Assembly (NCBI GenBank): GCA_964387625.1 | Contig: CAYLWN010000001.1 | Location: 35,560 to 99,559, forward strand | Direction of reading: 5' to 3' | DNA from: an uncultured Gammaproteobacteria bacterium | GTDB lineage: Bacteria; Patescibacteriota; Microgenomatia; UBA10105 | DNA length: 64,000 nt | Shown: one piece after another, positions 3,165 through 60,855 of the stretch | How the letters are laid out: every line of letters begins with the position of its first letter | How positions within the stretch are numbered: the stretch's first letter is position 1 | Program-made: the position numbers and the translations under genes | The notes under the pieces: generated by a model | The model's database searches: none | What the model was told of the DNA's origin: nothing | Seen by the model: only the letters and a program-made list of their open reading frames with translations

Positions 3165-4646
3165 ATGTTTAAAATTATTAAACACAATATAGTAATTATT
3201 TTAATATTAATTACTGCAGCGGGTTTGTTGAGTATAAATATTAATAAAAAATTTATCGGTATCCATGATTGGAATGGAGTCTGGTATGGAACGATAGCCA
3301 AGAATAATTTAAAACTTGGCCTATTACATACAAAATTAGGATCAGTTAAAGGTACAGGGGACACTCAACTCAGTGCAGGATCTTATTTTACACATTATCC
3401 GGTACTTTTCCCTTTGATTTTGACAGCAGGTTATTATTTAATGGGCGTATCTGAAGCATCCCTAAGAATTACAGTATCGGCGTTTTCATTATTATCGGTA
3501 TTATTTATTTATTTGATTACCAAAAGAATTTTTGATAAAAAAACTGCAATTTATTCCGCAATTTTTACAATTATAACGCCATTATTTATCTATTATGGAA
3601 AAATGCCGGTTCATGAACCTGTGCTGTTGTGTTTGGTCTTAGGCACTGTCTATTTTTATATTAAATGGTTTGACAGTCAAAAAAATAAGGATTTTTTGGG
3701 AATGTCTGTATTTTTGGTCATCAGCCTATTGATCACATGGCCGGCTTATTTTGTACCATTTTTACTATTATGTCATTATTATCTATTTCATAAACAAAAA
3801 AAACATCTAAAATTGTTATTACTGTTGATATTAATTGAAATATCAGCTTTTTTACTTCATTTACTGCATGTTTATATATTAACCGGATCTTTTTTTGGCG
3901 GAGGATTGATAGAAATATTTTTATCCAGGATAAGCTCTGATTCTACAACACAATTGTATTCATTAAATATTACAAAATATCTCACCACAGAAATAAGATA
4001 CTTTTCTTTATATTTTACGCGCATTCTTTTATTTTTTAGCGGTGTATGGTTTTTTACACAAATATATTATATTTTAAGGTTTAAAAAAATATCATATAAA
4101 AATAGTATTATCTGGTTATTTATGATATTTGGAAGTTTATATTTAGTAATTTTCAAAGAAGCTTCATTTTTACATGACTATTTGATTTATTACTTACTGC
4201 CTTTTTTTGTCATTTCTTCTGCAATCATATTTATAAAGTTAATTAATTTTATTACTAATAAGTATTTAAAATACATTGTTATTGTTTTAGCAATTGTTAT
4301 TATTGGTTCTGACAAATATAGTTATTTAGTTGCGTTAATTAAAAGTAATCAAAGCGAAAAAGCATATACTATTGGCAATTTTATCAATAACAATGCATCA
4401 GCTAACGATAAGGTGTTTATTGCGTCCAATGTTTATAGACAATTCTATGGACCTTTTATAACTTACTATTCCAATTATTCTATAATTAATTATGCGGAGT
4501 CATTGGATTTAACTACTGCAAAAAAATATAATTTGATAGTCAGAATTAAATCCCACGATGCCTTGGACCCAAACAGTAAAATTATACTAGCAACAAATTT
4601 CAAACCTAATGAAGATGATAATTTTATTTATTATTTTCCTCAATAA
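3165..4646 (+). CDS. GT-C fold glycosyltransferase (ArnT/PMT, GT39/GT83-like), polytopic membrane protein
   Basis: About 11 predicted TM helices. The first loop carries an acidic motif (IGIHDWNG) and there is a C-terminal soluble domain. Confidence 0.5.
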   Translation: MFKIIKHNIVIILILITAAGLLSININKKFIGIHDWNGVWYGTIAKNNLKLGLLHTKLGSVKGTGDTQLSAGSYFTHYPVLFPLILTAGYYLMGVSEASLRITVSAFSLLSVLFIYLITKRIFDKKTAIYSAIFTIITPLFIYYGKMPVHEPVLLCLVLGTVYFYIKWFDSQKNKDFLGMSVFLVISLLITWPAYFVPFLLLCHYYLFHKQKKHLKLLLLLILIEISAFLLHLLHVYILTGSFFGGGLIEIFLSRISSDSTTQLYSLNITKYLTTEIRYFSLYFTRILLFFSGVWFFTQIYYILRFKKISYKNSIIWLFMIFGSLYLVIFKEASFLHDYLIYYLLPFFVISSAIIFIKLINFITNKYLKYIVIVLAIVIIGSDKYSYLVALIKSNQSEKAYTIGNFINNNASANDKVFIASNVYRQFYGPFITYYSNYSIINYAESLDLTTAKKYNLIVRIKSHDALDPNSKIILATNFKPNEDDNFIYYFPQ

Positions 4647-4649
4647 TTC

Positions 4650-5429
4650 ATGAAAAAAATTGATGTTATCATGCCTGCAAGAAATGCTAGTAAATATTTA
4701 AGGTGTGCAATTGACAGCATATTAAATCAAACTTATGAAAATTTCAGACTTATCATTGTTGATGATGCATCAACAGATAATACTGTAAAAATAATCAAAT
4801 CATATTTGGATAATAGAATATTTTTAATTAAGAATAGATCTCAAATGGGAGTTGCAAAAAGCCTAAATATTGCCCTTAATTATGTAAATTCAGAATATAT
4901 AGCTCGGATGGATGCTGACGATGTTGCTAAATCAAATCGTCTTCAAACACAGTTAGATTACCTGATAAATCATAAAGACGTTGGTGTTGTTGCAAGTGCA
5001 GCTGATCTAATTAATGAAAACGGAAAAATTTGTGGTATTAAACAATATTCATCAAATGAGGTAGATACTTGTAACCAATTAATAAATAGAAATGTAATAA
5101 TTCATCCTACTGTGATGTTTCGGACGCAACTCATAAATAAATACGGTTTATACGATGAAAATTTAAACGGAGCAGAAGATTATGATTTGTGGTTAAGGTT
5201 GGGAAAACACACAAAAATAATTAATTTGCCTCAAAAATTACTAAAATACAGAATACACACAGATAATGTTTCAAATTATGCAATAAAAAAAGTTGAAAAA
5301 GCCACAATAAAAGCTCAAATTAAAGCCTTAATTAAATATAATTATAATCTTGTATTAATTTTATATATAATAAGAAACATTATTTCATATTTAATACCTG
5401 CTTCAATAAAAAAAGCATCTTTTAATTAA
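4650..5429 (+). CDS. GT2 family glycosyltransferase
   Basis: VIMPARN...IVDDASTDNT and RMDADD motifs (GT-A DxD). Confidence 0.7.
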   Translation: MKKIDVIMPARNASKYLRCAIDSILNQTYENFRLIIVDDASTDNTVKIIKSYLDNRIFLIKNRSQMGVAKSLNIALNYVNSEYIARMDADDVAKSNRLQTQLDYLINHKDVGVVASAADLINENGKICGIKQYSSNEVDTCNQLINRNVIIHPTVMFRTQLINKYGLYDENLNGAEDYDLWLRLGKHTKIINLPQKLLKYRIHTDNVSNYAIKKVEKATIKAQIKALIKYNYNLVLILYIIRNIISYLIPASIKKASFN

Positions 5430-5461: not shown

Positions 5462-6721
5462 ATGAAAAAAACAACTCCTACACAACTAAGAATTTTGATG
5501 TTGACTGAATATTTTTATCCATTTGATCGGGGAGGCAGTGAATGGAGTGTTTATCATTTATCTAAGTCTTTGCTTGATTTAGGATCAGAAGTTGCAGTTT
5601 TTACGCCTAATTATGGTGAAAAATCCTATGCTGTCAAAGATAAGATTAAAATTTACCGTTTTCCTTTTTTAATTTACTTAAAAAGAAAAAATGCACCCAT
5701 AACCCCTTTTTGGCACTCAAACATATTATGGTTTGTTGTTTCATTTGTCTATTTGTTCATAACAATACTTAAGTTTAAACCTACTCATATTCATATACAG
5801 GGAAAATATTTTATTCCTCAAGCTGTGATTGCAGGAAAAATTATACGCTTACCCGTAATTGTAACTTTAAGAGATTATATAGTTTTATGTCCTTATGCTT
5901 TTTGTATAAACAGGAAAAATAAATATTTATCCTGTTCTTACGGTGATTTAATAAATAAAGATCTAAATTTATTTCAAAAAAATTATCTAAGTAGTAAAAA
6001 TTTAATTAGCTATTTTATAAGTTTTATAGCTGCAATCAGAGGCTATTTGGTGTCAGCAATTTTAAGATTTTTTTTAAGTCAAGATACATATAAAATTGCC
6101 ATTAGTAAAAAAGTCGCATTAATATATAAACTAAACAACATTCACGTAAATAAAGTAATTTATAATTCGATATCTTCCGTTAAAGCATTTCCTTCTAAAA
6201 CTAAGAATTATTTAGTTTATGCAGGCAGATTAACAAAAGGTAAAGGGATTGATTCATTTACTAAAGCATATTTCAGTCTAAGTAAAACAATATTGCTACC
6301 AAAATTGTTAGTTATTGGAGATGGCCCATTAAAGACGCTACTTAAAGAGTATAAGCTAAAAAATATCAGCCTTTTGGGGCATTTAAGACAAGAAGAGGTG
6401 CTTAAGGTTTTTAGGTCGGCTAAGGCTGTTGTAGTGCCTTCAATTTGGGAAGAACCGTTTGGACGGGTAGCTCTCGAAGCTATTATTTGTCAAATTCCTG
6501 TATTAGCCAGTAACAGGGGTGCATTGCCAGAAATTGTCATAAATAACCGTTATGGAAAAATTATTGAACCATCAATAAATAATTTTAAAAAAGAGTTAGT
6601 AAAATTTCTGAAAAATAGAAATATATATAAAAAATATTTACTAACGGACAAAAAATTAATATTAGATAAATTCGCGTATAATCCGATCACTGCTCATTTA
6701 GCTGTATATAAATCATTATGA
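5462..6721 (+). CDS. GT4 family glycosyltransferase
   Basis: EEPFGRVALEAIICQIPVLASNRGALPEIV motif. Confidence 0.65.
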   Translation: MKKTTPTQLRILMLTEYFYPFDRGGSEWSVYHLSKSLLDLGSEVAVFTPNYGEKSYAVKDKIKIYRFPFLIYLKRKNAPITPFWHSNILWFVVSFVYLFITILKFKPTHIHIQGKYFIPQAVIAGKIIRLPVIVTLRDYIVLCPYAFCINRKNKYLSCSYGDLINKDLNLFQKNYLSSKNLISYFISFIAAIRGYLVSAILRFFLSQDTYKIAISKKVALIYKLNNIHVNKVIYNSISSVKAFPSKTKNYLVYAGRLTKGKGIDSFTKAYFSLSKTILLPKLLVIGDGPLKTLLKEYKLKNISLLGHLRQEEVLKVFRSAKAVVVPSIWEEPFGRVALEAIICQIPVLASNRGALPEIVINNRYGKIIEPSINNFKKELVKFLKNRNIYKKYLLTDKKLILDKFAYNPITAHLAVYKSL

Positions 6722-7791
6722 TTTTGAGCGTATTCTTAGCAATTGGCGAAAGTTGGGAAGATTTCCAAAAAAAAGGACAGGATAAACTGCTTATAAAAAA
6801 TAACTTTTACCAATATTCTCAAAATTTTGAAAAAGTTTTTATTTTTTCATACGGAAAAAAAAGTAAAAAACTTCTCAAAAACGTTTTCTTATTAGGTAAT
6901 AAATATAGAATTCACAGATTTGTTTACTCTTTTATTTTTCCTATAATTTACAAAAAGGAAATAAAACAAAGTCGGATAATCAGAGGAATGCAAATAACTA
7001 GCGCCATAGCTGGAAGCGTTAGTAAAATTCTATATAAAAAAAAGGTGATTATTAACTATGGTTATGATTATGGAAACGTGGCAAAGATAGAAAAAAAATA
7101 TTTACACGCGTTATTATTTAAGTTAATGGATAATATTATTTTTAATTTTGTTGACGGTGTGATTGTTACGACAAGACAATTAAAGAAAAAAATTTCTATC
7201 TTAACCGATGTTCCTTTATATTTGATACCTAATAGTATTAATACAAAAATATTTAAACCTATGCGAAGAAAAAAAAGTATTGATATATTATATATTGGTA
7301 GATTAGAAAAACAAAAAAATTTGAAACTAATTATAGATGCAGCTTCTTTATTAAAAAAGAAAATAAGCACAGTGTTTATAGGAGATGGAAAACAAAGAAA
7401 TCTTTTAATAACACACGCGAAGATTAATAAAGTTAATTTAAAAATATTATCTTCTAAACCTCATAATTTACTAAATAATTTTTATAACAAAACAAAAATT
7501 TTTATTTTACCTTCACTTGAAGAAGGACACCCAAAAGCGTTACTTGAAGCAATGAGTTGCGGAGTAGCTGTTATTGGAACCAACGTAACTGGAATAAAGA
7601 ATTTGATTATAAATAACAAAAACGGAATATTATCAAAATTGGATTCTTATGAATTGAGTAAAAAAATTGAACTTTTATTAAAAAATTCAAAACTAAGACA
7701 AAAACTATCTTCAAATGCACGACAATATATAATATCTAATTATAATAGTATCAGCACCTGGAAAAAGGAAATCCTGCTTTTGAAACAATAA
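6718..7791 (+). CDS. GT4 family glycosyltransferase
   Basis: EEGHPKALLEAMSCGVAVIGTNVTGIKNLI motif. ATGA overlap with the upstream gene. Confidence 0.65.
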   Translation: MILSVFLAIGESWEDFQKKGQDKLLIKNNFYQYSQNFEKVFIFSYGKKSKKLLKNVFLLGNKYRIHRFVYSFIFPIIYKKEIKQSRIIRGMQITSAIAGSVSKILYKKKVIINYGYDYGNVAKIEKKYLHALLFKLMDNIIFNFVDGVIVTTRQLKKKISILTDVPLYLIPNSINTKIFKPMRRKKSIDILYIGRLEKQKNLKLIIDAASLLKKKISTVFIGDGKQRNLLITHAKINKVNLKILSSKPHNLLNNFYNKTKIFILPSLEEGHPKALLEAMSCGVAVIGTNVTGIKNLIINNKNGILSKLDSYELSKKIELLLKNSKLRQKLSSNARQYIISNYNSISTWKKEILLLKQ

Positions 7792-7793
7792 TC

Positions 7794-9002
7794 ATGCACA
7801 TTTTATTTGTATGTTCAGAATTTCCTATAGAGAATAGAGCTACCGGTGGTTTCGGAAGTTATGTTGATAAAATTAGTCAGGGATTAGTAAGTTTAGGACA
7901 TAAAGTCACTATAGTTTGTATAGGCGAAAATCCTAAATTTGTAAATGATAAAAAAAGAAATATATGGCTTATTAAGCCAGTTTTAGACGATTTATTATTA
8001 TATTTTTTAAATTCCTCAAGTAGATTTTTAAATCGATTAATAAAATTTATAAGGTACCCTTTAGGATTTAGTTTAGCAGTATATTTAACTATTCAGAAAA
8101 TAAACAAAGCAACTCCTATAGATATTATCGAAGGTGGTGATTTTGGAGCAGAAATGTTCTTTTATTTATTGCTCCGGTCTGCAAAAAATCCTAAAACAGT
8201 AATTAAGCTTCATACGCCAAGTTTTATAATCCGTAAGACAAATGATGAAAAACTAAATAACTTTTATAAAGTAATGGAATTTTTGGAATCCTTCTGTTTA
8301 AAAAAAACAGATGCACTTAATTCTCCAACTAAAGCATTAGCCGAATTTGTTTGTAGATATTTGCATATAAAAGTAACTAAAATCATTCCTTATCCTGTAA
8401 TTCCCATAAAAATGGACGCAAGAATAAAAAGAGATAAGAATCTGGTTTTATATATAGGTAAATTTCAGAAAAAAAAGGGGGTGTTCGTTTTGGTAGATGC
8501 GATTCCAAAAATTATTAAATTATTTCCAAAAGTTAAATTTATACTTATAGGCCCCGACAGTATGACAAACAATAAATCAACAAAAGAGATGTTACAAGAA
8601 AATCTCAAAAAAGGCCATTGTTTAAATAACGTAACTTTTATTGAAAATATCAGCCAAAACGAGCTATATAAATACTATCAAAAAGCGATAATAACAGTAG
8701 TTCCATCAATTTGGGAAAATTTTCCAAACGTTATTTTGGAAGCGATGTTGCTTAAATCTTTAGTTGTTTCTACAAAAGTAGGGGGAATACTGGAAATAAT
8801 TCAACATAAGCAAACTGGTATTATGGTAGAACCCGGAGACAGCAAAGATTTAGCAAAATCAATTATAAAAATTATCAAAAGAAAAAAACAGATAAATAGA
8901 ATGGTTCAATTAGCAAAAAAAGATATTCAAAATAAATATTCATTAATAAAAATTGCACAAAAGACTATTTCTTTTTATGGGAAGATAATGCAAGTGCAAT
9001 AA
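7794..9002 (+). CDS. GT4 family glycosyltransferase
   Basis: WENFPNVILEAMLLKSLVVSTKVGGILEII motif. Confidence 0.65.
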   Translation: MHILFVCSEFPIENRATGGFGSYVDKISQGLVSLGHKVTIVCIGENPKFVNDKKRNIWLIKPVLDDLLLYFLNSSSRFLNRLIKFIRYPLGFSLAVYLTIQKINKATPIDIIEGGDFGAEMFFYLLLRSAKNPKTVIKLHTPSFIIRKTNDEKLNNFYKVMEFLESFCLKKTDALNSPTKALAEFVCRYLHIKVTKIIPYPVIPIKMDARIKRDKNLVLYIGKFQKKKGVFVLVDAIPKIIKLFPKVKFILIGPDSMTNNKSTKEMLQENLKKGHCLNNVTFIENISQNELYKYYQKAIITVVPSIWENFPNVILEAMLLKSLVVSTKVGGILEIIQHKQTGIMVEPGDSKDLAKSIIKIIKRKKQINRMVQLAKKDIQNKYSLIKIAQKTISFYGKIMQVQ

Positions 9003-10215
9003 AAGGGACAATTGGCTCAGTCCATCTTTCTATTAAAATAATAATTATCAATCCCCAAATTTGATATCTTGGAATAAGTATAAATATTAATACTATTTTC
9101 ACTAATTGAGGTAAAACGCCTGCAATAATTTGCGGTTTCTTACGTTTTTGATACATGACCATATCATAAACCACCCATGAAAATGGAAGAGGAATAAGGG
9201 CTAAGCTTAATACCTGTCCGTAAACAATAGCATCTTGGTATTTTGAACCGAAGAAAAAATTTATCAAAATCGGCGTTAATAAAAATAAAAATAAACTCAA
9301 AAAAATACCCAATATAAAAAATTTCCACCAATGAGTTTTTAAGGTATTAAGATGTTCTTTGTTTGATTGTGATGCTAATTTGGCAGTTATTGGTTTATAA
9401 AATACTTGAAAATTTTTCTGCACTGATGTTAAAAATTTGGAAGCTACAGCGTAAATTGCCAATGCTTCAACATTAATAAAATTACCAAGAATAATACTAC
9501 CCAAATTACCGGTTATCCAGGGAATAATAGATAAAATAGTTAAAAATGAACCATAACGAAAAAGCTCCTTATCCTGAGTGTTATTTTTTACTAAACGCAG
9601 ACAGTAATAGAATCCGATTATTGCAGGAATAATTAATGCCATCATATAACTAAATATTAATAATGGTGTTTTAGGAAAATAAAATATGGAAACTGATAAT
9701 AAAACTAAAAAAAATAATGAGGCTAAAGAAGATACAATTGATAAAACAGAAAAATTCCGTTTACCTGTTAAAAAAGCCGGATAAATTGAAAATGGATTTA
9801 AGAAAGGAAAAAGCAAAGCAGCAATCAAGAGACCTGTACTGATCTGATTTTGTTGTTGAAGAAAATGATATCCAGATATGGCCAGAAGTATAGGAATACC
9901 CAATAATGAAAATTTAAATTTTGAATTTATGGCAAATATTAATGAACCGTCAAATTTTTTACTTACTGATTGAGTTAATGCAAGATCTAACCCGGGTAAA
10001 CTAAGAAAAGTTAACATACCTAAATATGAAAGTATTAAATTGTATTCTCCAAAAGTGGTTTTTGAAAGGAAATGACCAAAAAAGTAACTGACAATTAACC
10101 CGCATGTTACACCGATTATTTGTTGTAATGTTGCCCAAAGGCTACTTTTAGTAAAATAAGTAATATCTAATTTTAATAAGCTTAGAAAAAATCTGGGAAA
10201 GGCATTTTTTTGCAT
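8965..10215 (-). CDS. Wzx-like oligosaccharide flippase (MOP/polysaccharide biosynthesis protein family)
   Basis: 416 aa, about 12 TM helices, topology and length typical of Wzx/RfbX. ATG at 10215. Its 3' end overlaps the convergent GT4 gene by 38 nt. Confidence 0.5.
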   Translation of the reverse strand: MQKNAFPRFFLSLLKLDITYFTKSSLWATLQQIIGVTCGLIVSYFFGHFLSKTTFGEYNLILSYLGMLTFLSLPGLDLALTQSVSKKFDGSLIFAINSKFKFSLLGIPILLAISGYHFLQQQNQISTGLLIAALLFPFLNPFSIYPAFLTGKRNFSVLSIVSSLASLFFLVLLSVSIFYFPKTPLLIFSYMMALIIPAIIGFYYCLRLVKNNTQDKELFRYGSFLTILSIIPWITGNLGSIILGNFINVEALAIYAVASKFLTSVQKNFQVFYKPITAKLASQSNKEHLNTLKTHWWKFFILGIFLSLFLFLLTPILINFFFGSKYQDAIVYGQVLSLALIPLPFSWVVYDMVMYQKRKKPQIIAGVLPQLVKIVLIFILIPRYQIWGLIIIILIERWTEPIVPFIALALSSHKKK

Positions 10216-11273: not shown

Positions 11274-11657
11274 ATGAAAATTATATCAAAATTCCCAGTG
11301 TATAAGGATAATCGTGGTCAAATAGTTAATATATTCGATTTTACTAAAAATAACAAAATTAAGTCGTCATTAATAATTACATCTAAAAAAGACGCTATTA
11401 GAGCTAATCATTACCATAAAACAGATAGTCATTATATATATTTAATATCCGGAAAATTTGAATATTATGAAAAAAAATTAAAAAATAATAGTAAGATTAA
11501 ATCAATAACTATAAACAAAGGTGATTCAATTAATACTGAAACCGGCATAATACATGCAATGAAATTTCTTGAAGATTCAATTATGTTAGTTTTAACTACT
11601 GAAGATAGAGATCAGAAAAAATACGAAAAGGACATAGTAAGAATTAAATTAATTTAA
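11274..11657 (+). CDS. WxcM/FdtA-like cupin (putative NDP-sugar 3,4-ketoisomerase)
   Basis: 127 aa beta-rich protein. The N-terminus reads 'DNRGQIVNIFD...ANHYHKTDSHY', with His pairs like the FdtA/QdtA cupin family. Confidence 0.4.
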   Translation: MKIISKFPVYKDNRGQIVNIFDFTKNNKIKSSLIITSKKDAIRANHYHKTDSHYIYLISGKFEYYEKKLKNNSKIKSITINKGDSINTETGIIHAMKFLEDSIMLVLTTEDRDQKKYEKDIVRIKLI

Positions 11658-12892: not shown

Positions 12893-12940
12893 TAAAACTT
12901 AGAATTAATTGATAAATTTTGTTACAATAGCGTTCATTAT

Positions 12941-19657: not shown

Positions 19658-19660
19658 ATA

Positions 19661-19666
19661 CCTCCA
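19661..19666 (-). promoter_or_regulatory. Shine-Dalgarno (GGAGG) for the amidotransferase gene
   Basis: The minus strand reads TGGAGGTATATG, with the ATG at 19657. Confidence 0.5.
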
Positions 19667-19734
19667 ATTATTTAATAAATAAGATGGTTTTAAATTTTAA
19701 GAGGCAGTATATATCTTATCGTTTTAACACAGCT

Positions 19735-21161: not shown

Positions 21162-21293
21162 AACAGCTATTTTTATACAGTCTTAGGTATAGGTAATTAT
21201 AAATTTTGGTTTATAAATTCTGAAGTTTTTAAAAACCAATAATTATATTAATAGTATTATCTACGGTGTTAATAATTTATATAAAAACATATT

Positions 21294-43523: not shown

Positions 43524-43526
43524 TTT

Positions 43527-47701: not shown

Positions 47702-47715
47702 ATTTGTTTATATCT

Positions 47716-48921: not shown

Positions 48922-48974
48922 AAAATAATTTTCTCCGGACACTTAAAAAAATTAAATTAGATAGACGTTATCTT

Positions 48975-51826: not shown

Positions 51827-51827
51827 G

Positions 51828-52592
51828 TTAATTATTGTCTAAATAAATTTTTATAATTTTTTCCGCATCTCCTTGTGCTACAATTCTTCCCTTTTTAATT
51901 AGATATACCTTCTTACACAATCTTTTGATGAAATCCATATTGTGACTTATAAAAATAATAGTTCTTTTTTTTTCACTACAAATTTCTTCCATTTTCTTAA
52001 GTGATGCTTCTTGAAATTTATTATCTCCAACGGCAAAAACTTCATCAACTAAAAGAATATCTGGCTCAAGTTGTATGGTGACTGAAAAAGCCAAACGGAT
52101 ATACATACCTGATGAGTAATATTTAACGGGAATATCAATAAATTTTTTTACTCCTGAAAAGTTAACAATTTCAGTAAATTGTTTATCGATTTTTACTTTG
52201 GGAATACCTAAAATAGCTCCTGCTAAATACACGTTTTCTCTACCCGTTAATTCTCCTCTAAACCCGGCACCAACTTCTAATAAGCTACCTATTGTACCCC
52301 GAAGAATAATTTTTCCACTAGTTGGAGTAATAATATTTGCTAAGATTTTTAGTAAAGTAGATTTACCTGCTCCATTAGGCCCAATAACACCGATAGTTTC
52401 ACCTTGATAAATATTGAATGAAATATTTTTTAATGCCCAAAAATTTTCTTTTTGAGGAATAAATTGTACATTTCTAGTTATAACACTTCTTATAAATTTT
52501 TCCATCTCTTCACGAAGACTCAATTTTGGCTGAATTTTCGTCAAAACGTATTTTTTTGACAGTTTTAGACATTCAATAATAGGTTGATTCAT
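51828..52592 (-). CDS. ABC transporter ATP-binding protein, Wzt/TagH-like (polysaccharide export)
   Basis: Walker A 'GPNGAGKSTLLK', signature 'YSSGMYIRLAF', Walker B 'ILLVDEVFAVGD'. No C-terminal carbohydrate-binding extension. Confidence 0.7.
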   Translation of the reverse strand: MNQPIIECLKLSKKYVLTKIQPKLSLREEMEKFIRSVITRNVQFIPQKENFWALKNISFNIYQGETIGVIGPNGAGKSTLLKILANIITPTSGKIILRGTIGSLLEVGAGFRGELTGRENVYLAGAILGIPKVKIDKQFTEIVNFSGVKKFIDIPVKYYSSGMYIRLAFSVTIQLEPDILLVDEVFAVGDNKFQEASLKKMEEICSEKKRTIIFISHNMDFIKRLCKKVYLIKKGRIVAQGDAEKIIKIYLDNN

Positions 52593-53401
52593 ACTATATC
52601 GCTAAAATATTTTTCTAATTTAATAAATATATAGATACCCACAACGAAAAATATTATTGAATATAATCCAATTAATAATAACCCTGGTATATCTATATTG
52701 AACGTATTTATTAATAGTGAATTTCTACTAACTTCTATGAGTCTTGTTAAGGGATTAAAATCAAAAATAGCTCTGTATTTACTTGGAACAAAATTTATAG
52801 GATATAAAATTGGTGTAATTAATAAAAGAATTTGTAAAAAAAAGGGGATTATAAATTTTATATCCCGATAGATAAGATTTAATGCAGAAAAAGCTGAACC
52901 AATTCCAATTGATATTAAAACTGTTAAGAATAAAATGATAGGCATGATGACTATACCTGCTGGATTAAATGAGTATCGATAATAGATTAATAATAAAATT
53001 AGCATTACTAAAGATATAAAAAAATCAACTATATTCACAAAAACTGAAGCAATTGGTAAGATAAGTTTAGGTAAATAAACTTTGGTGATAATGTCTCGAT
53101 TTGCAGATAAACATTCAGTTGCAGAAGTAACAGATTTAGAAAATAAGTTCCAATAAATTAATCCAGTATAAGTCAGTAGTGGATAGGGGATATTACTGAC
53201 AGTTTTTGTCATTTCTCCAAAAACTATATTCAGTATGATCATTGTTAAAAAAGGTTGTAAAATTATCCAAAAAATTCCAATAAAAGTTTGTTTATAACGA
53301 ATTTTTATATCACGCCATGCTAAAAAAAATATCAATTCACGATATTTCCAAAATGTAAATAGATTATAATTTATTGAATTGGGGGATATAACGATCTCCA
53401 T
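52589..53401 (-). CDS. ABC-2 type transporter permease, Wzm/TagG-like
   Basis: 270 aa, 6 TM helices. The N-terminal 'LAWRDIKIRYKQTFIGIFW' block is typical of Wzm/KpsM. ATGA-coupled to the ATPase gene. Confidence 0.6.
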   Translation of the reverse strand: MEIVISPNSINYNLFTFWKYRELIFFLAWRDIKIRYKQTFIGIFWIILQPFLTMIILNIVFGEMTKTVSNIPYPLLTYTGLIYWNLFSKSVTSATECLSANRDIITKVYLPKLILPIASVFVNIVDFFISLVMLILLLIYYRYSFNPAGIVIMPIILFLTVLISIGIGSAFSALNLIYRDIKFIIPFFLQILLLITPILYPINFVPSKYRAIFDFNPLTRLIEVSRNSLLINTFNIDIPGLLLIGLYSIIFFVVGIYIFIKLEKYFSDIV

Positions 53402-53407
53402 ACAAAA

Positions 53408-54604
53408 TTATTTTTTATAGAAGCTTACGATTTTTAAAACAGCATTGATTACGTCAATAATATCTTTATTTGTCATGGCAGGGGATAAAGGGAGAGATAT
53501 TGATCTACTGCCTACAAATTCTGCATTAGGAAAGTCACCTAATTTATATTTATAAGTTTCCCTGTAGTATTTATGTAAGTGCAGTGGCGTAAAGTGTACT
53601 CCACTGCCGATTCCCTCTTTACTTAATGCATTGATAAATGTATCTCTGGAAATTTTCAATTTCTCAATTTTTAGTAAAATTGCATATAAATGTCTGGCGT
53701 GTGTTGTGTTATTTTCTTCCGGGGCAGGCAATATAAGTTCCGGCACATCCTTGAAAGCCTTATTATATATATCCCAATACTTTTGTCTGATTTTAAAATT
53801 TTGTTTAACTTGAGCTAATTGATGAATGCCCAATGATGCTACTAAGTCCATCATATTATATTTATATCCGGGATAAAGTGTTTCATAAGGAGAATATCCA
53901 TCTTTGGAATATCTTTTCCAAGCATCTTTTGATATACCATGTAAACTTCTGATGCGAGCTTCCTGCGCCCAAATGGAGTTATTTGTGGTTAACATACCGC
54001 CTTCACCAGTCATGATATTTTTGGTGACGTAAAATGAAAAAGCTGTGAAATCAGATATAGTGCCAATCTTTTTACTTCTATATATGCTTTCAGCTGCATG
54101 TGCAGCATCTTCTATAACAAAAAGCTGATACTTTTTGGCAATTTGAGAAATTTTATCCATTTGACAAGGTCTGCCGTGTAAATGAACAGGAATTATAGCT
54201 TTGGTTTTTTTAGTAATTTTTTTCTCAATTTGTTTATAATCGATATTCCAGGAATTTATATCAATATCGACAAAAACAGGTTTTGCCTGATGATGGACAA
54301 TGACGTTAGCAGTTGATGCAAATGTAAGAGGTGTGGTAATAACCTCATCGCCTTCCTTTATACCCAACACATCTAAAGCTAAATGCAGTCCTGCAGTACA
54401 GGAATTTAGAGCAACGGCATATTTGCAGCCAATAAATTTTTTAAAATTATCTTCAAATATTTTTGTTTTTGGACCGGTTCCTAACCAACCGGATTTAAGA
54501 GTTTTTACAACTTCATTAATTTCTTTATTGGTTATTTTTGGTTTTCCAAAAACCAGGAAATTTTTTCTTACAGATTTTCCGCCTGCTATTGCTGGTTGAA
54601 TCAT
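53408..54604 (-). CDS. DegT/DnrJ/EryC1/StrS family PLP-dependent sugar aminotransferase
   Basis: 'FLVFGKPKITNKEINEV', 'SFYVTKNIMTGEGG' with the PLP Lys, 'GYKYNMMDLVASLG'. Confidence 0.7.
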   Translation of the reverse strand: MIQPAIAGGKSVRKNFLVFGKPKITNKEINEVVKTLKSGWLGTGPKTKIFEDNFKKFIGCKYAVALNSCTAGLHLALDVLGIKEGDEVITTPLTFASTANVIVHHQAKPVFVDIDINSWNIDYKQIEKKITKKTKAIIPVHLHGRPCQMDKISQIAKKYQLFVIEDAAHAAESIYRSKKIGTISDFTAFSFYVTKNIMTGEGGMLTTNNSIWAQEARIRSLHGISKDAWKRYSKDGYSPYETLYPGYKYNMMDLVASLGIHQLAQVKQNFKIRQKYWDIYNKAFKDVPELILPAPEENNTTHARHLYAILLKIEKLKISRDTFINALSKEGIGSGVHFTPLHLHKYYRETYKYKLGDFPNAEFVGSRSISLPLSPAMTNKDIIDVINAVLKIVSFYKK

Positions 54605-54665: not shown

Positions 54666-56723
54666 ATGAAAAAAATTATCAATAAAAATTTTAAAACATT
54701 ATTACCTGTTATAAACGCAATACTAATAGGTTTACAGTGGATGATTGCGGCTTTTCTGATAGTTGGTTTACATCCCAGACCCAGACAGTTGGATTTGTTA
54801 ACTGATTTAGGCAAGTACTGGTATAGACCGGAATATGATTTATTAATTTATATATGCGGTTGTTTTGTTGTTTTATTGTTAATTTTTATTTTTACCCGGA
54901 TAGAGCAAAAACTGCATTTTACGTACAGTTTATTATCATGTGTAATACAATTAATACTAGTTGTGTTTTTTAAAAATTTTATTTTAGACTTCTGGAAACA
55001 ACCTGTTAATTATAACTTAAAAGTTCTGCTGACCATGATCTGGGCATTTATCTTAGTTTTTCCAAGTATGTTAGCTGTATATTTTTCCGTGAAAAATACC
55101 AGATGGAAATTTCCATTCAGCTCGAGACTAAATATGAATCTTATTGACCTGATTTTTCCGCTACTTATCATATTATTAATTTATATTCCGGATATGAAAA
55201 ACCTGTCTGGAAAAATATATTTAAATGATCAATTTTTACATTGGAATTCATTTGCAATCAGACCGGCATTAGGTTTTAGACACGGTTTGACGTTGGGTAA
55301 AGAGATGTTTGTTCAGTACGGTTTGGGATGGCCGGTTGTTATGTCTCTTCTAAATCCTCCCGATTTGACATATAGCAGCATGATCCATGTCGGAATTATT
55401 TATGCAGGAATTTATTATATTGGATTATATATTTTATTGCGTTTATTAACCAGGGATATATTTTGGTCTATCACAGGCACATGTTTGACGCTTTTGTTTC
55501 AATTTTTTACCCGAAATTTTCCTTTACCTTTTTTTTGGGAAACTCCTTCTTCAACAATTCTTAGAATGCCGTTTGACGTTTGGTTTTTTAGCGCTGTTGT
55601 TTTGGCAATAAATTCAGGATTTACGTTTTGGAAAATTGTAGCAGCTATTTTTACCGGTTTAGCAATTTTATTTGAATTTGATACGGGAATTTATCTGGCA
55701 TTTACCTTTGGTTTTTATTTGGTTGTTCCCATAATCAACGCAGTTATAAATAAAAAATATCAAACAGTTAAAAAAGAAATTTATATTTCTTTATTATGTA
55801 TTTTTACAGTTTGCATAATTTTATTTGGTAGCATGGCATTTGTTGTAAAAGTTTCGGTATTAGATATTAAATATTGGTCGGTACTGATTGAAGGAATTAA
55901 GGAGTACGGTGGGGGTATTACTAGTTTACCTCTTGCCACTCTCAGATCGAACAGCTCTTTAATTGTGTTTGAGTTAATTATTGGTATGTATTTATTCGTG
56001 GTAGGTAATTGGTTGATAAAATTTTTGAATAAAAAATCGCATTCAGAAGATATGTTCGTAGCAGGATTAGGTTTTTATGGTTTGGTAATGCTTTTAATCT
56101 TTATTGGCAGATCACATATATTAAATTTAATGTATCCAACTGTGCCGTTTTGGATTTTATTTACCTGGGTAGTAGTAAAGATTTATAAGTTAATGTCTGT
56201 TCACTACAAGCAAATACAATCATATATACCAGCAATATCAGTTATAACTGTAGGAATACTATTATTGACTAATCCGGCTTATCAAAATTACTCCAATATA
56301 TTAAACTCGTATTTTAAAGGAAGTGATAAAAATGAAATATGCTTGTTTCAAGATCATAATGATGTTTGCGGATTGCCGGAAACAGAAAGAAAAACAGCCA
56401 TTGATTTTACAGATATTACTACGAAAATGAAAACATGGCAATCACAAGGAAAAACAGTAGCAGTTTTTGATGACTATGATACAAGATATTATCTTGCTAT
56501 TAATAGTTATCCTAAGTTTAGGTACACGCCATATGATATTTTTACTAAAAAACAACTGGAATATATTAGTCAACAAATTATTAATAAACAACCAGATTAT
56601 ATTCTGATCAGAAAAGACGCTCCAAAAAATGATATTATGACAGAAACACAGGGATTAATAAATAGTTATTATCAGCAGGAGAAAGACTTGAGTATTTTCA
56701 ATGTTTGGCAAAAGAATAATTAG
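54666..56723 (+). CDS. large polytopic membrane protein with C-terminal soluble domain (GT-C-like candidate)
   Basis: 685 aa, about 14 or more TM helices. The first loop carries an acidic stretch 'DLLTDLGKYWYRPEYD'. The C-terminal roughly 150 aa are hydrophilic. Confidence 0.35.
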   Translation: MKKIINKNFKTLLPVINAILIGLQWMIAAFLIVGLHPRPRQLDLLTDLGKYWYRPEYDLLIYICGCFVVLLLIFIFTRIEQKLHFTYSLLSCVIQLILVVFFKNFILDFWKQPVNYNLKVLLTMIWAFILVFPSMLAVYFSVKNTRWKFPFSSRLNMNLIDLIFPLLIILLIYIPDMKNLSGKIYLNDQFLHWNSFAIRPALGFRHGLTLGKEMFVQYGLGWPVVMSLLNPPDLTYSSMIHVGIIYAGIYYIGLYILLRLLTRDIFWSITGTCLTLLFQFFTRNFPLPFFWETPSSTILRMPFDVWFFSAVVLAINSGFTFWKIVAAIFTGLAILFEFDTGIYLAFTFGFYLVVPIINAVINKKYQTVKKEIYISLLCIFTVCIILFGSMAFVVKVSVLDIKYWSVLIEGIKEYGGGITSLPLATLRSNSSLIVFELIIGMYLFVVGNWLIKFLNKKSHSEDMFVAGLGFYGLVMLLIFIGRSHILNLMYPTVPFWILFTWVVVKIYKLMSVHYKQIQSYIPAISVITVGILLLTNPAYQNYSNILNSYFKGSDKNEICLFQDHNDVCGLPETERKTAIDFTDITTKMKTWQSQGKTVAVFDDYDTRYYLAINSYPKFRYTPYDIFTKKQLEYISQQIINKQPDYILIRKDAPKNDIMTETQGLINSYYQQEKDLSIFNVWQKNN

Positions 56724-56766: not shown

Positions 56767-57972
56767 ATGCCAGTTTTAATATTTTCTATTTTTATATTTA
56801 TTTTGTTTTTTAAAAGTTTATTTGTTTATTTTGTACAGGATGATTTCTATTTTTTAGCTATCACAAGAATTCATACTTTTTCGCAATTTTTTTCATTGTT
56901 TATTCCTGATCCTAATAATGTTTGGTATCGGCCTTTATCTTCACCGGTATTTTTTTATTTATTAAAATTATTGTTTGGTTATAATCCATTTGGATTTCAT
57001 CTGATAGTTTTTGTTACACATGTATTTACCATATGGTTACTTTATTTTTTCATAAAAACGATTTTAAAAAATAATTTAATTGCATTATTATCAGGATTAT
57101 TTTATGGCATTCATCAATTGCATACAGTATCTCTTTCATGGCTCGCAACATACCCATTTATATTAGGGCCGACAATGCTGTTATTAACGTTAATATTTTT
57201 TTATAAACAAAAAATATATTTATCATTACTTTTTTTTATATTCGGATTATTATCTTGGGAAATTATTGTTATCGTACCGATAATTTTAATACTCTTTACA
57301 ATTCTTATAGAAAAGCAAAAAAAGTTTCTCAGAATAACTCCATTTATATGTTTATCAGTGTTATTGGTCATTGTTAGATTAGTTATTTTTAAAACTGAAG
57401 TTAAAACAAATCTTTATAGCATACAATTTTCCTGGGAAATAATAAGTTTGTTTAAATTCTATTTATTGAGACTAGTGGGTTTACCTATGTTGATAACAGA
57501 AATGCCAAATGTAGAAAAAATTATTACTTTATTGCTTTCAGGATTTTTTACAATAATTACAATTTATGGATTCTATTTATCTTATATTAAACGGCATTTA
57601 CAAAAAAGAATTGTGCTATTTTTATTATTACTAATGATTATTGGTATTGGTCCCTTCTTATTTTTACCGAACCATATAGCTCCGCATTATTTATCTGTAG
57701 CTCTTATAGGTTATGCTATTTTATCTGCATACGGTATTTATGAAGTCATACTTAATATAAAACATAAAAAGATAATTTCTACGATAATAATATTGATTTT
57801 TGTAATAAATCAATACATTGGAATAGATTGGACTTATAAAACACATTGGATATTTCAAAGAGCTGTTTTAGCCAAAAAATTAATAGAAAATAATCAATTA
57901 ATTCAAAAAATTGGAACCGAAGAATATTTTTCTTTAGGCGGAGAAAACGGTTATACTGCTTTGCATAAATGA
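56767..57972 (+). CDS. PMT/ArnT-like GT-C membrane glycosyltransferase candidate
   Basis: The N-terminus 'FVYFVQDDFYFLAI' resembles the PMT loop-1 'VVFDEVHF' motif. 401 aa, about 11 TM helices. Confidence 0.4.
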   Translation: MPVLIFSIFIFILFFKSLFVYFVQDDFYFLAITRIHTFSQFFSLFIPDPNNVWYRPLSSPVFFYLLKLLFGYNPFGFHLIVFVTHVFTIWLLYFFIKTILKNNLIALLSGLFYGIHQLHTVSLSWLATYPFILGPTMLLLTLIFFYKQKIYLSLLFFIFGLLSWEIIVIVPIILILFTILIEKQKKFLRITPFICLSVLLVIVRLVIFKTEVKTNLYSIQFSWEIISLFKFYLLRLVGLPMLITEMPNVEKIITLLLSGFFTIITIYGFYLSYIKRHLQKRIVLFLLLLMIIGIGPFLFLPNHIAPHYLSVALIGYAILSAYGIYEVILNIKHKKIISTIIILIFVINQYIGIDWTYKTHWIFQRAVLAKKLIENNQLIQKIGTEEYFSLGGENGYTALHK

Positions 57973-59138
57973 AATCATTGAATATTTTTATAATTAAAAA
58001 TGCATACTTATTTATTTTAATAATTATTGCCACATTAATGTTTTTTCTTGTTTTAGGCAATAAATCTCCCTATTTTTCTTCGGACTCTTATCTTTATAAA
58101 CATTTTTATTATCAGTTTAAAGGGCATTCATTCGATGAATCACGTAATAAAATTCTTAATGAAATTAATGTAACTAATTTTGATGAAGCCACCAAAAATA
58201 TCTTATTAAATGATGAAACATATAGTATAAGTTTAAATTTAGTTAATCGAAGGGTATTTTATCCTTATGTTTCTTTTCTATTAAGTAATTTTATGCAAAA
58301 TGACTATAATAATTTATTAATTCCAGTGTATTTTTCATACATAGGAGTAATTATTATGATTTATGTTTTGATTAAATCTAATAAACCGGTTTTATTTTCT
58401 TTTGGTTCTGCTTTATTATTTTTAAGCTTTTACCCATTTATCTATTGGTCAACATATTTTTTGACTTATACAATTGGGACTTTTTTTTGGATGTTTAACG
58501 TATTTGCAGCTTATAAATATTTGAGGGAAAAATGCAATAAATGGCTAGTTTTATATATTTTTAGTCTGATTTTGTCATTAACTAATCGTGAGACCAGTAT
58601 TTTACTACTGCCTTTTTTAATGTTTGTAAAAATATTTTGTTTATTTAGACCTAATCTTAAACAAACAAAAATACAATTAAATAAGCTATTGTTTTCTACC
58701 ATTTTAATTATTGCAGGCTTTTTCATGTTTATATTTCTATTTAAACAGAAAAATATTATTGACGCTATTGTTTATAACCAAAATAATTTTGGTTTATATA
58801 ACAAACCAAGATCATTAATAGATGTTATATCATTTTGGTTTAATTCAGTAATTTATGTTCATCAGGGTATACTCAATGATTTACTGAAACACAAATATTG
58901 GGGGACAATTTTATTATTAACTTTATTAAATATATTTTTTAGAAAAATAAAGAAAATAGATCAATTGGAAATCATTTTAATCAGTTCCGCCTTTGCATCA
59001 TATTGTGGATTACTGATTTATCCGATATTAAGTTACAGATATTTTTTTCCAATCGTAGCAAGCTTAAGCTATTTTTATTGGGATTTAATCAGTTTTTACT
59101 TAAATAAATTAACGATATTTATCAAAAAAAATAACTAA
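57969..59138 (+). CDS. polytopic membrane protein (GT-C/polymerase-like candidate)
   Basis: 389 aa, multi-TM. ATGA-coupled to the upstream gene. First loop reads 'SPYFSSDSYLYKHFYY'. Confidence 0.35.
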   Translation: MKSLNIFIIKNAYLFILIIIATLMFFLVLGNKSPYFSSDSYLYKHFYYQFKGHSFDESRNKILNEINVTNFDEATKNILLNDETYSISLNLVNRRVFYPYVSFLLSNFMQNDYNNLLIPVYFSYIGVIIMIYVLIKSNKPVLFSFGSALLFLSFYPFIYWSTYFLTYTIGTFFWMFNVFAAYKYLREKCNKWLVLYIFSLILSLTNRETSILLLPFLMFVKIFCLFRPNLKQTKIQLNKLLFSTILIIAGFFMFIFLFKQKNIIDAIVYNQNNFGLYNKPRSLIDVISFWFNSVIYVHQGILNDLLKHKYWGTILLLTLLNIFFRKIKKIDQLEIILISSAFASYCGLLIYPILSYRYFFPIVASLSYFYWDLISFYLNKLTIFIKKNN

Positions 59139-59190
59139 TTAATTTTTTTTGGTTTATTTAAACATCGGACCTTATAAATAATTAAATATA

Positions 59191-60855
59191 ATGTATAAGA
59201 AAATTACCGTTTTCATAATTTGTTTAAGCGTAATTTTACTGTATATGTCTCCATATATAATTTTGGGAGAAAAATCCTATCTACCGATTAACGACAATTT
59301 AGATGGGCCTTTTATAGATTATGTTTTACTGTCAAGAAGCAATAAGATTTTTTCAGGTCTTACTGCGGTTTTGCCTCAAATTGCTAACGGAATATCCAGA
59401 AATGTATTCCCTAGTGAATTTGACTTAACTTTATGGTTTTTTTATTTTTTTCCACCGTTTGCAGCTTATTTTGTTAATCTTTTACTCTATAGAATTTTAG
59501 CATTTTTTGGTATGTTTTTACTGCTTAAAAAGCATATCTTAGATAAGAAAATTAACCAGTTAATATTATTTTCAGTTTCACTGATTTTTGCGCTTTTACC
59601 ATTTTTATCATTTGGCTCGGGTTGTATAGCTTTGTTACCTTTAACTTTTTATATTTTTTTAAATATCAGGAAAAATAAATATTGTTGGTATGATTGGGTG
59701 ATACTGGGATTTATTCCACTGTATTCAAATTTACCTTTAGTTTACACATTTTTTATTTTATTTTTAGGTTTATTATGGTTGTTCGATCTAATTAAATATA
59801 AGAAGATAAATCCGATATTTGTTTATGCATTGATAACATTTTCTGTATTGTTTTTAATTAAAGAATATCGGTTAGTTTATATTACTTTTTTTGATCATAG
59901 TTATATTTCTCATCGGGTAGAATTTGTAATAATAAAAGATTCAATCTCGCAATGTTTACAAAAAACATTGGATATCTTGCATTATGGACAATATCATGCT
60001 CAAAGCAGTGCATTTCCGGTTTTAATAATTTCCTGGATTGTTGCATTTTTACATATTCGAAAAAATAAACTGAAAGCTAATTTTTATTGGACAACTGCAA
60101 TCATATTCTTTTTTGCTCTCTGTTACGGGTTTCGCGATGTCTGGTTTTGGAAAGACATTGGCAGCAAAATTACACTACTGCATGCTTTTGATATCAGTAG
60201 ATTTTTTATGTTGTTGCCCTTATTTTGGTATATAAATTGGGCATATTCATTACAAGTAATATGGCAAATCAAAAAATATGGTCAACAACTAACAGTGTTA
60301 TTAATTGCAATACAATTGATGCTTATTTTTTATAAGAATGAAATAGTGCAAGGATCAATAACATATAAAATAAATTTTAAACAATTCTTTGCAGAAGAAC
60401 TTTTTACTAAAATCAAATCTGATATCGGTGATAAAACAAACAGTTTTCGTATAGTTAGTTTGGGAATTCATCCATCAATAGCATCATATAATGGTTTTTT
60501 TACCTTAGACTTTTACCTTAACAATTATCCACTAAAGTATAAACATGAATTTCGGCAAATAATTTCTGGTGAATTGAAAAAAAACATGGAATTACAGAAA
60601 TTTTTTGATGAATGGGGGAGTCGGTGTTATTTATTTTCTCAAGATCTACCGGTTCATCCTTGGACAAAATCAATATACGAAACAATAAAAATACAAGACT
60701 TAATAATTGATACATACAAATTTAAGAGCATGGGTGGAAAATATTTATTTTCTGCTGCAGAAATTATGCATCCGGAAATTAATAACCTTAAATTTTATAA
60801 AAAATATTCAAATGTAAATTCTGCTTGGGATATTTATGTATATAAATTATTGTAG
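59191..60855 (+). CDS. polytopic membrane protein with C-terminal soluble domain (GT-C-like candidate)
   Basis: 554 aa. First loop reads 'LPINDNLDGPFIDYV'. About 11 TM helices, followed by a roughly 190 aa soluble tail. Confidence 0.35.
   Translation: MYKKITVFIICLSVILLYMSPYIILGEKSYLPINDNLDGPFIDYVLLSRSNKIFSGLTAVLPQIANGISRNVFPSEFDLTLWFFYFFPPFAAYFVNLLLYRILAFFGMFLLLKKHILDKKINQLILFSVSLIFALLPFLSFGSGCIALLPLTFYIFLNIRKNKYCWYDWVILGFIPLYSNLPLVYTFFILFLGLLWLFDLIKYKKINPIFVYALITFSVLFLIKEYRLVYITFFDHSYISHRVEFVIIKDSISQCLQKTLDILHYGQYHAQSSAFPVLIISWIVAFLHIRKNKLKANFYWTTAIIFFFALCYGFRDVWFWKDIGSKITLLHAFDISRFFMLLPLFWYINWAYSLQVIWQIKKYGQQLTVLLIAIQLMLIFYKNEIVQGSITYKINFKQFFAEELFTKIKSDIGDKTNSFRIVSLGIHPSIASYNGFFTLDFYLNNYPLKYKHEFRQIISGELKKNMELQKFFDEWGSRCYLFSQDLPVHPWTKSIYETIKIQDLIIDTYKFKSMGGKYLFSAAEIMHPEINNLKFYKKYSNVNSAWDIYVYKLL

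Follow-up and report, generated by a model that had tools for sequence, protein, structure and literature searches.

The stretch of 64,000 nucleotides analysed here (contig CAYLWN010000001.1, positions 35,560 to 99,559; hereafter the window) lies in a very large glycan-biosynthesis island and encodes ten large polytopic membrane proteins, most or all of which are glycosyltransferases (GTs) of the GT-C type. Each of these proteins is designated by the first position of its gene (Table 1). Their coordinates in a preliminary description of the window are exact and the public gene calls have the same lengths. All ten have exact sequence matches in Candidatus Gottesmanbacteria bacterium GW2011_GWA1_34_13 (contig LBPN01000001.1, 134.8 kb), and the host is Candidatus Gottesmanbacteria, a groundwater bacterium of the Microgenomates group within the candidate phyla radiation (CPR).

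Pfam and NCBIfam scans of every open reading frame (ORF) gave a glycan-biosynthesis assignment for nearly all of them, 55 ORFs in the window being at least 150 amino acids (aa) long. The window codes for eight GT-B-type glycosyltransferases, five GT2s, two C-methyltransferases, three DegT aminotransferases, a UDP-galactopyranose mutase and many dehydratases or epimerases. No tRNA gene was found in the window, nor any Pfam match to a transposase or integrase. The island extends at least 10 kb past both window edges and thus covers at least 84 kb. The flanks are loci L004 (10 kb to the left of the window start) and L003 (10 kb to the right of its end), whose protein families were taken from precomputed Pfam assignments. 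Three additional GT-C-like genes in the left flank (L004 1-9995) bring the number of candidates to about 13 in 84 kb. The other loci cited are those of related contigs (L026-L029), of a contig from a closely related strain (L002), of members of the 54666 family (L005-L024) and of a 57969 homologue (L031). The G+C content of the window is 27.8%; the suffix _34_13 of the bin name presumably gives genome GC and coverage, following the naming habit of the data set, and compared with that name the island may be more AT-rich than the remaining genome.

Table 1. Features of the glycan island, with positions in the window unless the left flank is indicated.
Position	Strand	Assignment	Remarks
48..566	+	3' part of a 228-aa GT2, polyprenyl-phosphate sugar synthase-like (PpgS/DPM1/ArnC/AglJ-like)	gene begins before the window
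563..913	+	small DUF2304 membrane protein, paired with the GT2 before it	PF10066, 87 bits
919..3157	+	two GT4 (GT-B) cytoplasmic glycosyltransferases	Pfam Glycos_transf_1, Glyco_transf_4; public call starts the second at about 2024
3165..4646	+	GT-C, PMT_2/PMT family, 493 aa	PMT_2 59.3 bits, PMT 32.9 bits, both past cutoff
4650..5429	+	ordinary GT2, EpsE/TuaG-like	
5462..9002	+	three GT4 (GT-B) glycosyltransferases	
8965..10215	-	Wzx-type flippase	Polysacc_synt 67 bits
10222..11199	-	Glyco_trans_1_2 glycosyltransferase	
11274..14008		sugar-nucleotide tailoring: FdtA/cupin-like, C-methyltransferase, epimerase/dehydratase	
14170..15822	-	probable GT-C, 550 aa	PDE after first transmembrane segment; 169-aa C-terminal domain
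15886..26764		pseudaminic-acid derivative pathway: DegT, GNAT, PseI, WbuX amidotransferase, HisF/HisH paralogues, formyltransferase-like, aminotransferase, CMP-transferase, oxidoreductase, PseB-like	
26761..28647	+	628-aa conserved protein, candidate pseudaminic-acid transferase	no Pfam match
28702..29937	-	C-methyltransferase	
29976..31523	-	GT-C, divergent PMT_2 relative, 515 aa	
31534..33012	-	GT-C, PMT_2 family, 492 aa	PMT_2 34.3 bits, past cutoff
33012..34989	-	RmlD-like reductase and GT-B glycosyltransferase	
35029..36447	+	GT-C fold, DUF6798 C-terminal domain, 472 aa	AlphaFold2 pLDDT 86.8
36450..37499	+	GT4 glycosyltransferase	
37505..39079	-	GT-C, PMT_2 family, 524 aa	4-bp overlap with the GT2 upstream
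39076..39786	-	DPM1/ArnC-like GT2, 236 aa	catalytic domain only
39801..45862		DegT aminotransferase, GNAT, 4,6-dehydratase, 322-aa protein, epimerase, UDP-sugar dehydrogenase	
45939..54604		ABC-transporter branch: methyltransferase, GT2, TylF-like methyltransferase, UDP-galactopyranose mutase, double GT2, Wzt, Wzm, DegT	
54666..56723	+	likely GT-C, 685 aa, about 14 or more transmembrane segments	large family without Pfam model
56767..57972	+	probable GT-C, 401 aa	like TPR-fused membrane transferases, without the TPR
57969..59138	+	GT-C, PMT_2-related, 389 aa	
59191..60855	+	GT-C, DUF6044 = YkoS/GtlB family, 554 aa	AlphaFold2 pLDDT 89.9
60913..63960		sugar-1-phosphate nucleotidyltransferase, 4,6-dehydratase, aminotransferase	
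left flank (L004)		PMT_2 protein, 527 aa	
left flank (L004)		549-aa protein	two flanking GT2 genes; weak YfhO and PTPS_related matches
left flank (L004)		Mannosyl_trans2 protein, 389 aa	

Topology and acidic motifs of the ten membrane proteins

A simple hydropathy scan, which underestimates their number, detected 6-14 strong hydrophobic segments in every one of the ten proteins, and both AlphaFold models (35029 and 59191) contain at least 11 membrane helices. The first transmembrane (TM) segment, TM1, is found within residues 3-34 and is preceded in nine proteins by 1-5 lysine or arginine residues, which places the N-terminus in the cytoplasm according to the positive-inside rule. No such residue precedes TM1 of 56767, but they are present in its orthologues. 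All ten are polytopic, as stated in the preliminary description.

That description had also placed an acidic motif, the catalytic hallmark of GT-C enzymes, in the first extracytoplasmic loop of each protein. Two acidic residues within four positions of each other occur in the 30 residues following TM1 of eight proteins; 3165 has HDW only and in 31534 an aspartate and a glutamate are further apart. The background rate of such a pair is 28% in random 30-mers and 31% in real non-TM 30-mers of the same proteins (binomial P about 0.002 for eight out of ten). The bare motif is therefore weakly above chance and weakly informative alone; conservation gives it weight. D35 and D38 are invariant among 50 sequences of the 59191 family, and P55-E56-x-D58 after TM1 is nearly invariant in the 54666 family (position 56 is acidic in 49 and D58 is kept in all of 50 sequences). 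Motifs are also kept in the orthologues of 37505 (HGDE), 29976 ([NTD][ED][DE]), 56767 (FVQDD) and 35029 (D27), while 14170 (PDE) and 57969, both with few homologues, carry one as well. The claim thus holds for the eight proteins with a pair, with conservation in six families, and is weak for 3165 and 31534. The several C-terminal soluble domains that had been described are present as non-membrane tails of 113-169 residues in eight proteins (none in 56767 and 57969), and those of the two modelled proteins contain beta structure.

Assignment to GT-C families and their conservation

The GT-C assignment is strong for seven proteins (3165, 31534, 37505, 29976, 57969, 35029 and 59191), good for 54666 and moderate for 14170 and 56767. 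The cutoff of the Pfam PMT_2 family (PF13231, 26.1 bits) is reached only by 3165 and 31534 (Table 1). Scores below it were obtained for 37505 (18.5 bits) and 56767 (7.5 bits; E=6) and no PMT_2 match for 14170, 29976, 54666 and 57969. Direct Pfam support, which 14170, 29976, 54666, 56767 and 57969 lack, is thinner than the preliminary description assumed. A phmmer comparison of all ten proteins, as a concatenated query, with PDB sequences gave no meaningful match.

Orthologues, paralogues and profile comparisons with hhalign provided the links for most of the other proteins. The 29976 family aligns with the 3165/31534 family (probability 96%, P=1.6e-9), its hidden Markov model detects 3165 at 7.9e-9, and 29976 homologues match PMT_2 and Glyco_transf_22 weakly. 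Protein 37505 has a paralogue with PMT_2 and PMT domains (L004:187-1152; 1.5e-30) and an orthologue (L028:12513-14054) that carries PMT_2, unmarked, in the precomputed Pfam assignments. Protein 57969 itself gives a TMEM260-like match only (E=0.09), and its homologue at L031:2258-3454 (40% identity; tblastn 4e-75) has PMT_2 past the cutoff (30.9 bits). This is the sole diverged 57969 homologue found, its gene lying directly after that of a DUF2142 polytopic membrane protein (72 bits; L031 718-3454); no relatives were found in a scan of viral contigs. The 54666 family, with 453 representative homologues at E<=1e-3 in a search of 1.84 billion proteins, has no Pfam match and, by profile search, no PDB sequence match, and aligns with the 29976 family (probability 88%, P=2.8e-6, 408 columns). 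Protein 14170 has no Pfam match and no homologues in the scan of metagenome contigs. It is named 'RgtA/B/C/D-like' in UniRef, aligns with the 29976 family (probability 67%, P=5e-5, 374 columns), and has an N-terminus colinear with the 37505 family, with DE on DE. Protein 56767 is similar to 37505 (BLASTP 2e-3) and its FVQDDF after TM1 is conserved; the profile of its family found nothing in the PDB. A distant homologue of it (L023:4638-6869) combines FVNYDD after TM1 with C-terminal TPRs, an architecture typical of bacterial TPR-fused GT-C proteins.

The hhalign links that appeared all run through the 29976 family; for a Wzx protein taken as control, P was >=0.05 with each of the families. No link was found among the DUF6044, DUF6798 and 54666 alignments. 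Because DUF6044 and DUF6798 share a fold (see below) and yet are not linked, pairwise profile comparison is an unreliable negative within GT-C.

Fold prediction was applied to 35029 and 59191, the two candidates likeliest to be something other than GT-C, and both fold as GT-C. This outcome, and that of the search for a priming transferase (see below), spoke for the preliminary description. In Foldseek searches against the PDB, ranks 1-13 of the 35029 model (best E=2.5e-5) and ranks 1-18 of the 59191 model (best E=5.5e-5) are all GT-C, with a Foldseek probability of 0.80-1.00 for these matches. They include DPY19, ALG12, ALG6 and ArnT for both models, ALG9 for 35029, and AftD, AglB and Pmt4 for 59191, next to the oligosaccharyltransferases considered further below. 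Protein 35029 was also tried as an EpsG/Wzy protein and rejected: the EpsG match (E=0.041) scores 13.5 bits against a cutoff of 30.1, the model matches GT-C instead, and no O-antigen ligase or polymerase is among its top 50 Foldseek matches. Protein 59191 is a full-length member of PF19510 (545 bits, profile positions 7-563 of 564). Its 666 homologues include YkoS-named proteins of Bacillus, and it is 36-38% identical to Bacillus proteins. YkoS, predicted to be the GT-C that works with the GT2 YkoT, is 49% identical to GtlB, the lipoteichoic-acid galactosyl GT-C of Listeria (PMC8035078, PMC5836110). Our literature search found no paper on the DUF6044 or DUF6798 families or on GT-C abundance in CPR.

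The word expansion, used for this set in the preliminary description, does not apply. An all-against-all BLASTP comparison of the ten detected only the pairs 31534/3165 (4e-5) and 37505/56767 (2e-3), and together with phmmer it ruled out a recent paralogous expansion. Judged from this deep divergence, they are old, distinct families and not the outcome of a lineage-specific duplication burst. The core arrangement of the island is kept in related genomes at 33-68% identity, and in four related contigs at 33-43%. Its order is a 29976-like gene, PseB with the 628-aa protein, a GT, DUF6798, a GT4, PMT_2 with a 234-aa GT2, DegT and a dehydratase. GT-C-like genes number four to five per 21 kb in the four related contigs. 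A sister genome lacks the block 54666-56767-57969 between DegT and DUF6044. In the strain contig L002 (1-2546; ENA ERZ4902915 NODE_689) only 314 aa remain of the 29976 orthologue, and three response-regulator genes follow it in place of the methyltransferase and the pseudaminic-acid block, which indicates a strain-level rearrangement at this site. For 54666 and 59191 the nearest relatives come from other phyla, the 54666 family being spread over Verrucomicrobiota, Planctomycetota, Burkholderiaceae and Patescibacteria. Genes of the 54666 family have neighbours in L007, L020, L023 and L024 that are distantly homologous to the 29976, 35029 and 56767 families, which suggests that these families tend to travel together.

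Donor synthesis, priming, export and accompanying genes

Three soluble GT2s had been proposed as DPM1/ArnC-like donor synthases, one of them with a DUF2304-like partner; two of the three stand. The one cut by the window start is complete in the left flank (L004:8962-9648), where it matches Dol-P-Man synthase (7.7e-14) and also ArnC in the PDB and PpgS (9e-44) and AglJ (2.3e-28) in NCBIfam; its part in the window (48-566) matches Pfam Glycos_transf_2. The partner is confirmed: the DUF2304 gene (L004 9645-9995, window 563-913) overlaps the GT2 gene by 4 bp, so that a TM-less GT2 is directly followed by a DUF2304 membrane protein, the arrangement expected of a GacI/GacJ-type pair. The second synthase (39076) matches the Dol-P-Man synthase of P. 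furiosus (2.4e-27), ArnC (about 1e-14) and GtrB (4.5e-12) in the PDB and ArnC in NCBIfam (6.9e-18). Both GT2s score below the equivalog cutoffs, which makes these matches indicative of the family and not of sugar specificity. The third (4650-5429) was rejected as a donor synthase: its best PDB matches are chondroitin synthase, GalT1 and SpsA, and its NCBIfam match is EpsE (7e-37), as for a generic GT2.

The 39076 gene overlaps that of the GT-C 37505 by 4 bp within an Arn-like module of five genes (37505-42456, minus strand) that codes for a 4,6-dehydratase, a GNAT acetyltransferase, a DegT aminotransferase, the DPMS/ArnC-like GT2 and the PMT_2 GT-C. The module is conserved in L026 and L028. 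Its DegT, GNAT and 4,6-dehydratase (in 39801..45862, Table 1) would feed the 39076/37505 pair. The neighbouring 322-aa protein (42555-43523, plus strand) has a C-terminal hydrophobic segment and the same position in the sister locus L026; no Pfam, NCBIfam or PDB sequence match was found for it.

No match at E<=1e-3 to Bac_transf (PF02397), Glycos_transf_4 (PF00953) or PF13727/CoA_binding_3 was obtained in the 55 window ORFs of at least 150 aa, and no priming transferase is present in the precomputed Pfam assignments of the 10-kb flanks. The reported lack of a WbaP/PglC- or WecA/MraY-type initiator is thus correct for the window and extends to its flanks. Initiating transferases commonly sit outside glycan clusters, so that their absence from 84 kb is no evidence for an unusual pathway. 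Export functions comprise the Wzx-type flippase and a Wzm/Wzt ABC-2 exporter at 51828-53401, while no Pfam match to Wzy_C, an O-antigen ligase or LCP was found in the window.

Among the accompanying genes (Table 1), the pseudaminic-acid branch is complete (PseI equivalog 461 bits and WbuX 336 bits in NCBIfam), and the amidotransferase set of WbuX with HisH/HisF suggests an acetamidino derivative. The 628-aa protein resembles the BFO_1060 glycosyltransferase family at its C-terminus (1.4e-9; 37.5 bits, cutoff 200). Its gene and the PseB-like gene are neighbours in the window and also in L027-L029; the L026 locus ends inside the gene of the 628-aa protein. This match and this neighbour make it a candidate pseudaminic-acid transferase; its comparison with PDB sequences was uninformative. 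The ABC-transporter branch (45939-53401) encodes a UDP-galactopyranose mutase, two methyltransferases and a GT2 of 543 aa with two domains, and resembles O-polysaccharide systems in which the chain ends are methylated. In the right flank (L003 1-10011) lie genes for methyltransferases, further GT2s, a thiamine-diphosphate enzyme of 601 aa and a transketolase-like pair that is split; these may serve the synthesis of branched-chain sugars.

Models of glycan assembly and relation to known systems

The island probably has two modes of assembly, one lipid-linked and conventional, the other based on several multi-component systems of transmembrane glycosylation. Chains would be built on a cytoplasmic lipid carrier by GT4 and GT2 enzymes and the probable pseudaminic-acid transferase, and exported by the Wzx flippase in the left arm and by the Wzm/Wzt ABC-2 transporter, accompanied by the galactofuranose mutase and methyltransferases, in the right arm. 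The small DPM1/ArnC/PpgS-like GT2s would load single, often exotic, sugars on polyprenyl phosphate. One of them is paired with DUF2304; the other is predicted to be translationally coupled to a PMT_2 enzyme, with an Arn-operon-like gene set upstream. The lipid-linked sugar would then be flipped across the membrane and transferred on its outer side by the about ten GT-C enzymes to various sites on a glycopolymer of the wall or on a glycoprotein; an S-layer protein, a pilin or a wall polymer could act as acceptor. Systems made of a GT-A synthase, a flippase and a GT-C have precedent (PMC8035078, PMC5836110). The view that much of the glycan assembly is extracytoplasmic was overstated. Cytoplasmic assembly of the conventional kind, on a lipid carrier, has at least as prominent a part, with eight GT-B and at least four further GT-A glycosyltransferases, the candidate pseudaminic-acid transferase, Wzx and Wzm/Wzt.

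The nearest known counterparts are the Gram-positive systems CsbB/GtcA/YfhO, GtlA/GtlB, YkoT/YkoS, YkcC/YkcB and the Csd pairs of Lactococcus, in which a GT-A polyprenyl-phosphate sugar synthase cooperates with a GT-C, itself polytopic and bearing a DxD-like motif in an outer loop. Protein 59191 belongs full-length to YkoS/GtlB, and several island proteins are of the PMT_2 type like YkcB, GacL and CsdD. However, these systems comprise one to three pairs per genome against about ten GT-C in this island, where the DUF6044 gene is not beside a GT2, a GtrA-type flippase gene is lacking from the window, and the host is a CPR bacterium. GacI/GacJ/GacL of Streptococcus pyogenes and PpgS (Rv3631) with its GT-C partner share with the island a short TM-less GT2, the adjacent DUF2304 and a nearby PMT_2 GT-C (3165); GacJ is a DUF2304 protein that stimulates GacI. 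Two GT4 genes separate the island GT2/DUF2304 pair from the GT-C, unlike GacI/J/L, and the GT2 reaches 149.6 bits against a PpgS equivalog cutoff of 370. The 37505-42456 module recalls the Arn pathway (ArnB, ArnC, ArnT) by its one-directional run of dehydratase, acetyltransferase, DegT, ArnC/DPMS-like GT2 and overlapping PMT_2 GT-C, but has no ArnA-type dehydrogenase/formyltransferase, ArnD deformylase or ArnE/F flippase, and its GT2 is without the C-terminal TM helices found in ArnC. Lipid A is not known to be made by CPR bacteria, so the acceptor of the module must be a different one.

Mycobacteria and corynebacteria likewise have many GT-C enzymes (EmbA/B/C, AftA-D, PimE, Pmt), some of them clustered, that work on wall glycans outside the membrane from polyprenyl-phosphate sugars, and AftD and EmbA/B are among the structural matches of the island models. 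None of the ten proteins is a member of the Emb or Aft families, however; they are far smaller (389-685 aa), as is the genome. The general protein O-glycosylation locus of Tannerella forsythia, whose glycan ends in pseudaminic or legionaminic acid, resembles the island in its pseudaminic-acid branch with a PseI equivalog, the BFO_1060-like C-terminus, Wzx and many GTs, but the BFO_1060 match is weak (37.5 vs 200 bits), and neither an S-layer gene nor an O-oligosaccharyltransferase was identified in the island.

Several points weigh against the proposed combination of assembly systems. Structure-level evidence covers two of them (35029 and 59191), the other eight being placed by sequence, and the support for 14170 and 56767 is moderate. 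Alongside about ten GT-C enzymes, the window has only two GT2s that resemble polyprenyl-phosphate sugar synthases, and no GtrA-type flippase was found in it. The best structural matches of both models are the oligosaccharyltransferases STT3 and PglB, and judging from these models en-bloc transfer from a lipid-PP-oligosaccharide is a real alternative. We nevertheless consider it rather unlikely that several of the ten act as oligosaccharyltransferases, ligases or polymerases on lipid-pyrophosphate glycans delivered by Wzx or the ABC exporter. Besides the STT3 and PglB ranks and the small number of donor synthases, this reading draws on the extracytoplasmic domain that eight of the proteins possess and on the combination of two exporters with no Wzy_C, O-antigen-ligase or LCP match, so that some enzyme must take the exported glycan. 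Yet Foldseek ranks at this level (TM-score about 0.5, 10-14% identity) do not separate functions, ArnT, ALG and DPY19 proteins being similar, and no STT3- or PglB-type Pfam match was obtained. Characterised PMT_2 and YkoS/GtlB relatives use polyprenyl-P-monosaccharides (PMC8035078). It seems more improbable still that 14170, 54666 and 56767 are not glycosyltransferases at all, resembling them in hydropathy and composition while being Wzy-like polymerases, transporters or acyltransferases. All three are without Pfam or PDB sequence match, and the hhalign links have low per-residue confidence at 15% identity; those links nonetheless reach P=2.8e-6 and P=5e-5 in alignments of 374-408 columns, against P>=0.01 for the Wzx control and most pairs. 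Conserved acidic motifs directly after TM1, the TPR-fused homologue of 56767 and the GT-C fold of the two least-expected candidates also argue for glycosyltransferases.

A reading of another kind, evolutionary and compatible with the proposed combination of assembly systems rather than a replacement for it, is that the island forms a strain-variable surface repertoire for phage evasion or host-cell specificity, whose modules are horizontally gained and lost and of which a subset is functional at once. This is a tentative possibility. It is consistent with the lack of mutual kinship among the ten families, the block 54666-56767-57969 missing in the sister genome, the replaced pseudaminic-acid block and truncated 29976 orthologue of the strain contig, the G+C content of the window, and the closest relatives of 54666 and 59191 lying in other phyla. 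However, the core order is kept across four contigs that have diverged to 33-43% identity, the ten ORFs are all intact, and the window has neither tRNA genes nor transposase or integrase matches.

A more far-reaching proposal, which we regard as doubtful, is that Microgenomates-group CPR bacteria make much of their surface glycan on the outer side of the membrane: at least ten different GT-C enzymes would act in sequence, as a relay, on one acceptor and would be supplied by very few polyprenyl-phosphate sugar synthases. The lumenal ALG steps of eukaryotes and the assembly of mycobacterial arabinogalactan would be its analogues. That such a relay would include unrecognised GT-C families, namely DUF6798 and the Pfam-less 54666 family, widespread in Verrucomicrobiota and Planctomycetota, is an equally speculative suggestion.

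The CPR cell surface is almost uncharted; CPR genomes are about 1 Mb in size, and all known cultivated members live as episymbionts on other microbes, a lifestyle for which the surface matters. Glycosylation in Saccharibacteria has been called 'unexplored' (PMC11623550). For a small CPR genome, thirteen candidate GT-C enzymes, three of them in the left flank, and at least 84 kb given over wholly to glycan synthesis amount to a very large commitment, a sign that some wall polymer or glycoprotein is elaborately decorated. The mode of decoration itself is known; what is unusual is the density of GT-C genes in a very small genome and the diversity of their families. The models provide new fold-level evidence for DUF6798 proteins as GT-C enzymes and confirm the same for DUF6044 (YkoS/GtlB), and the 54666 family, without a Pfam model, is flagged as probable GT-C, which is useful for annotation in other organisms. 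If the GT-C relay is true, the island would be a major determinant of the surface of an episymbiont.

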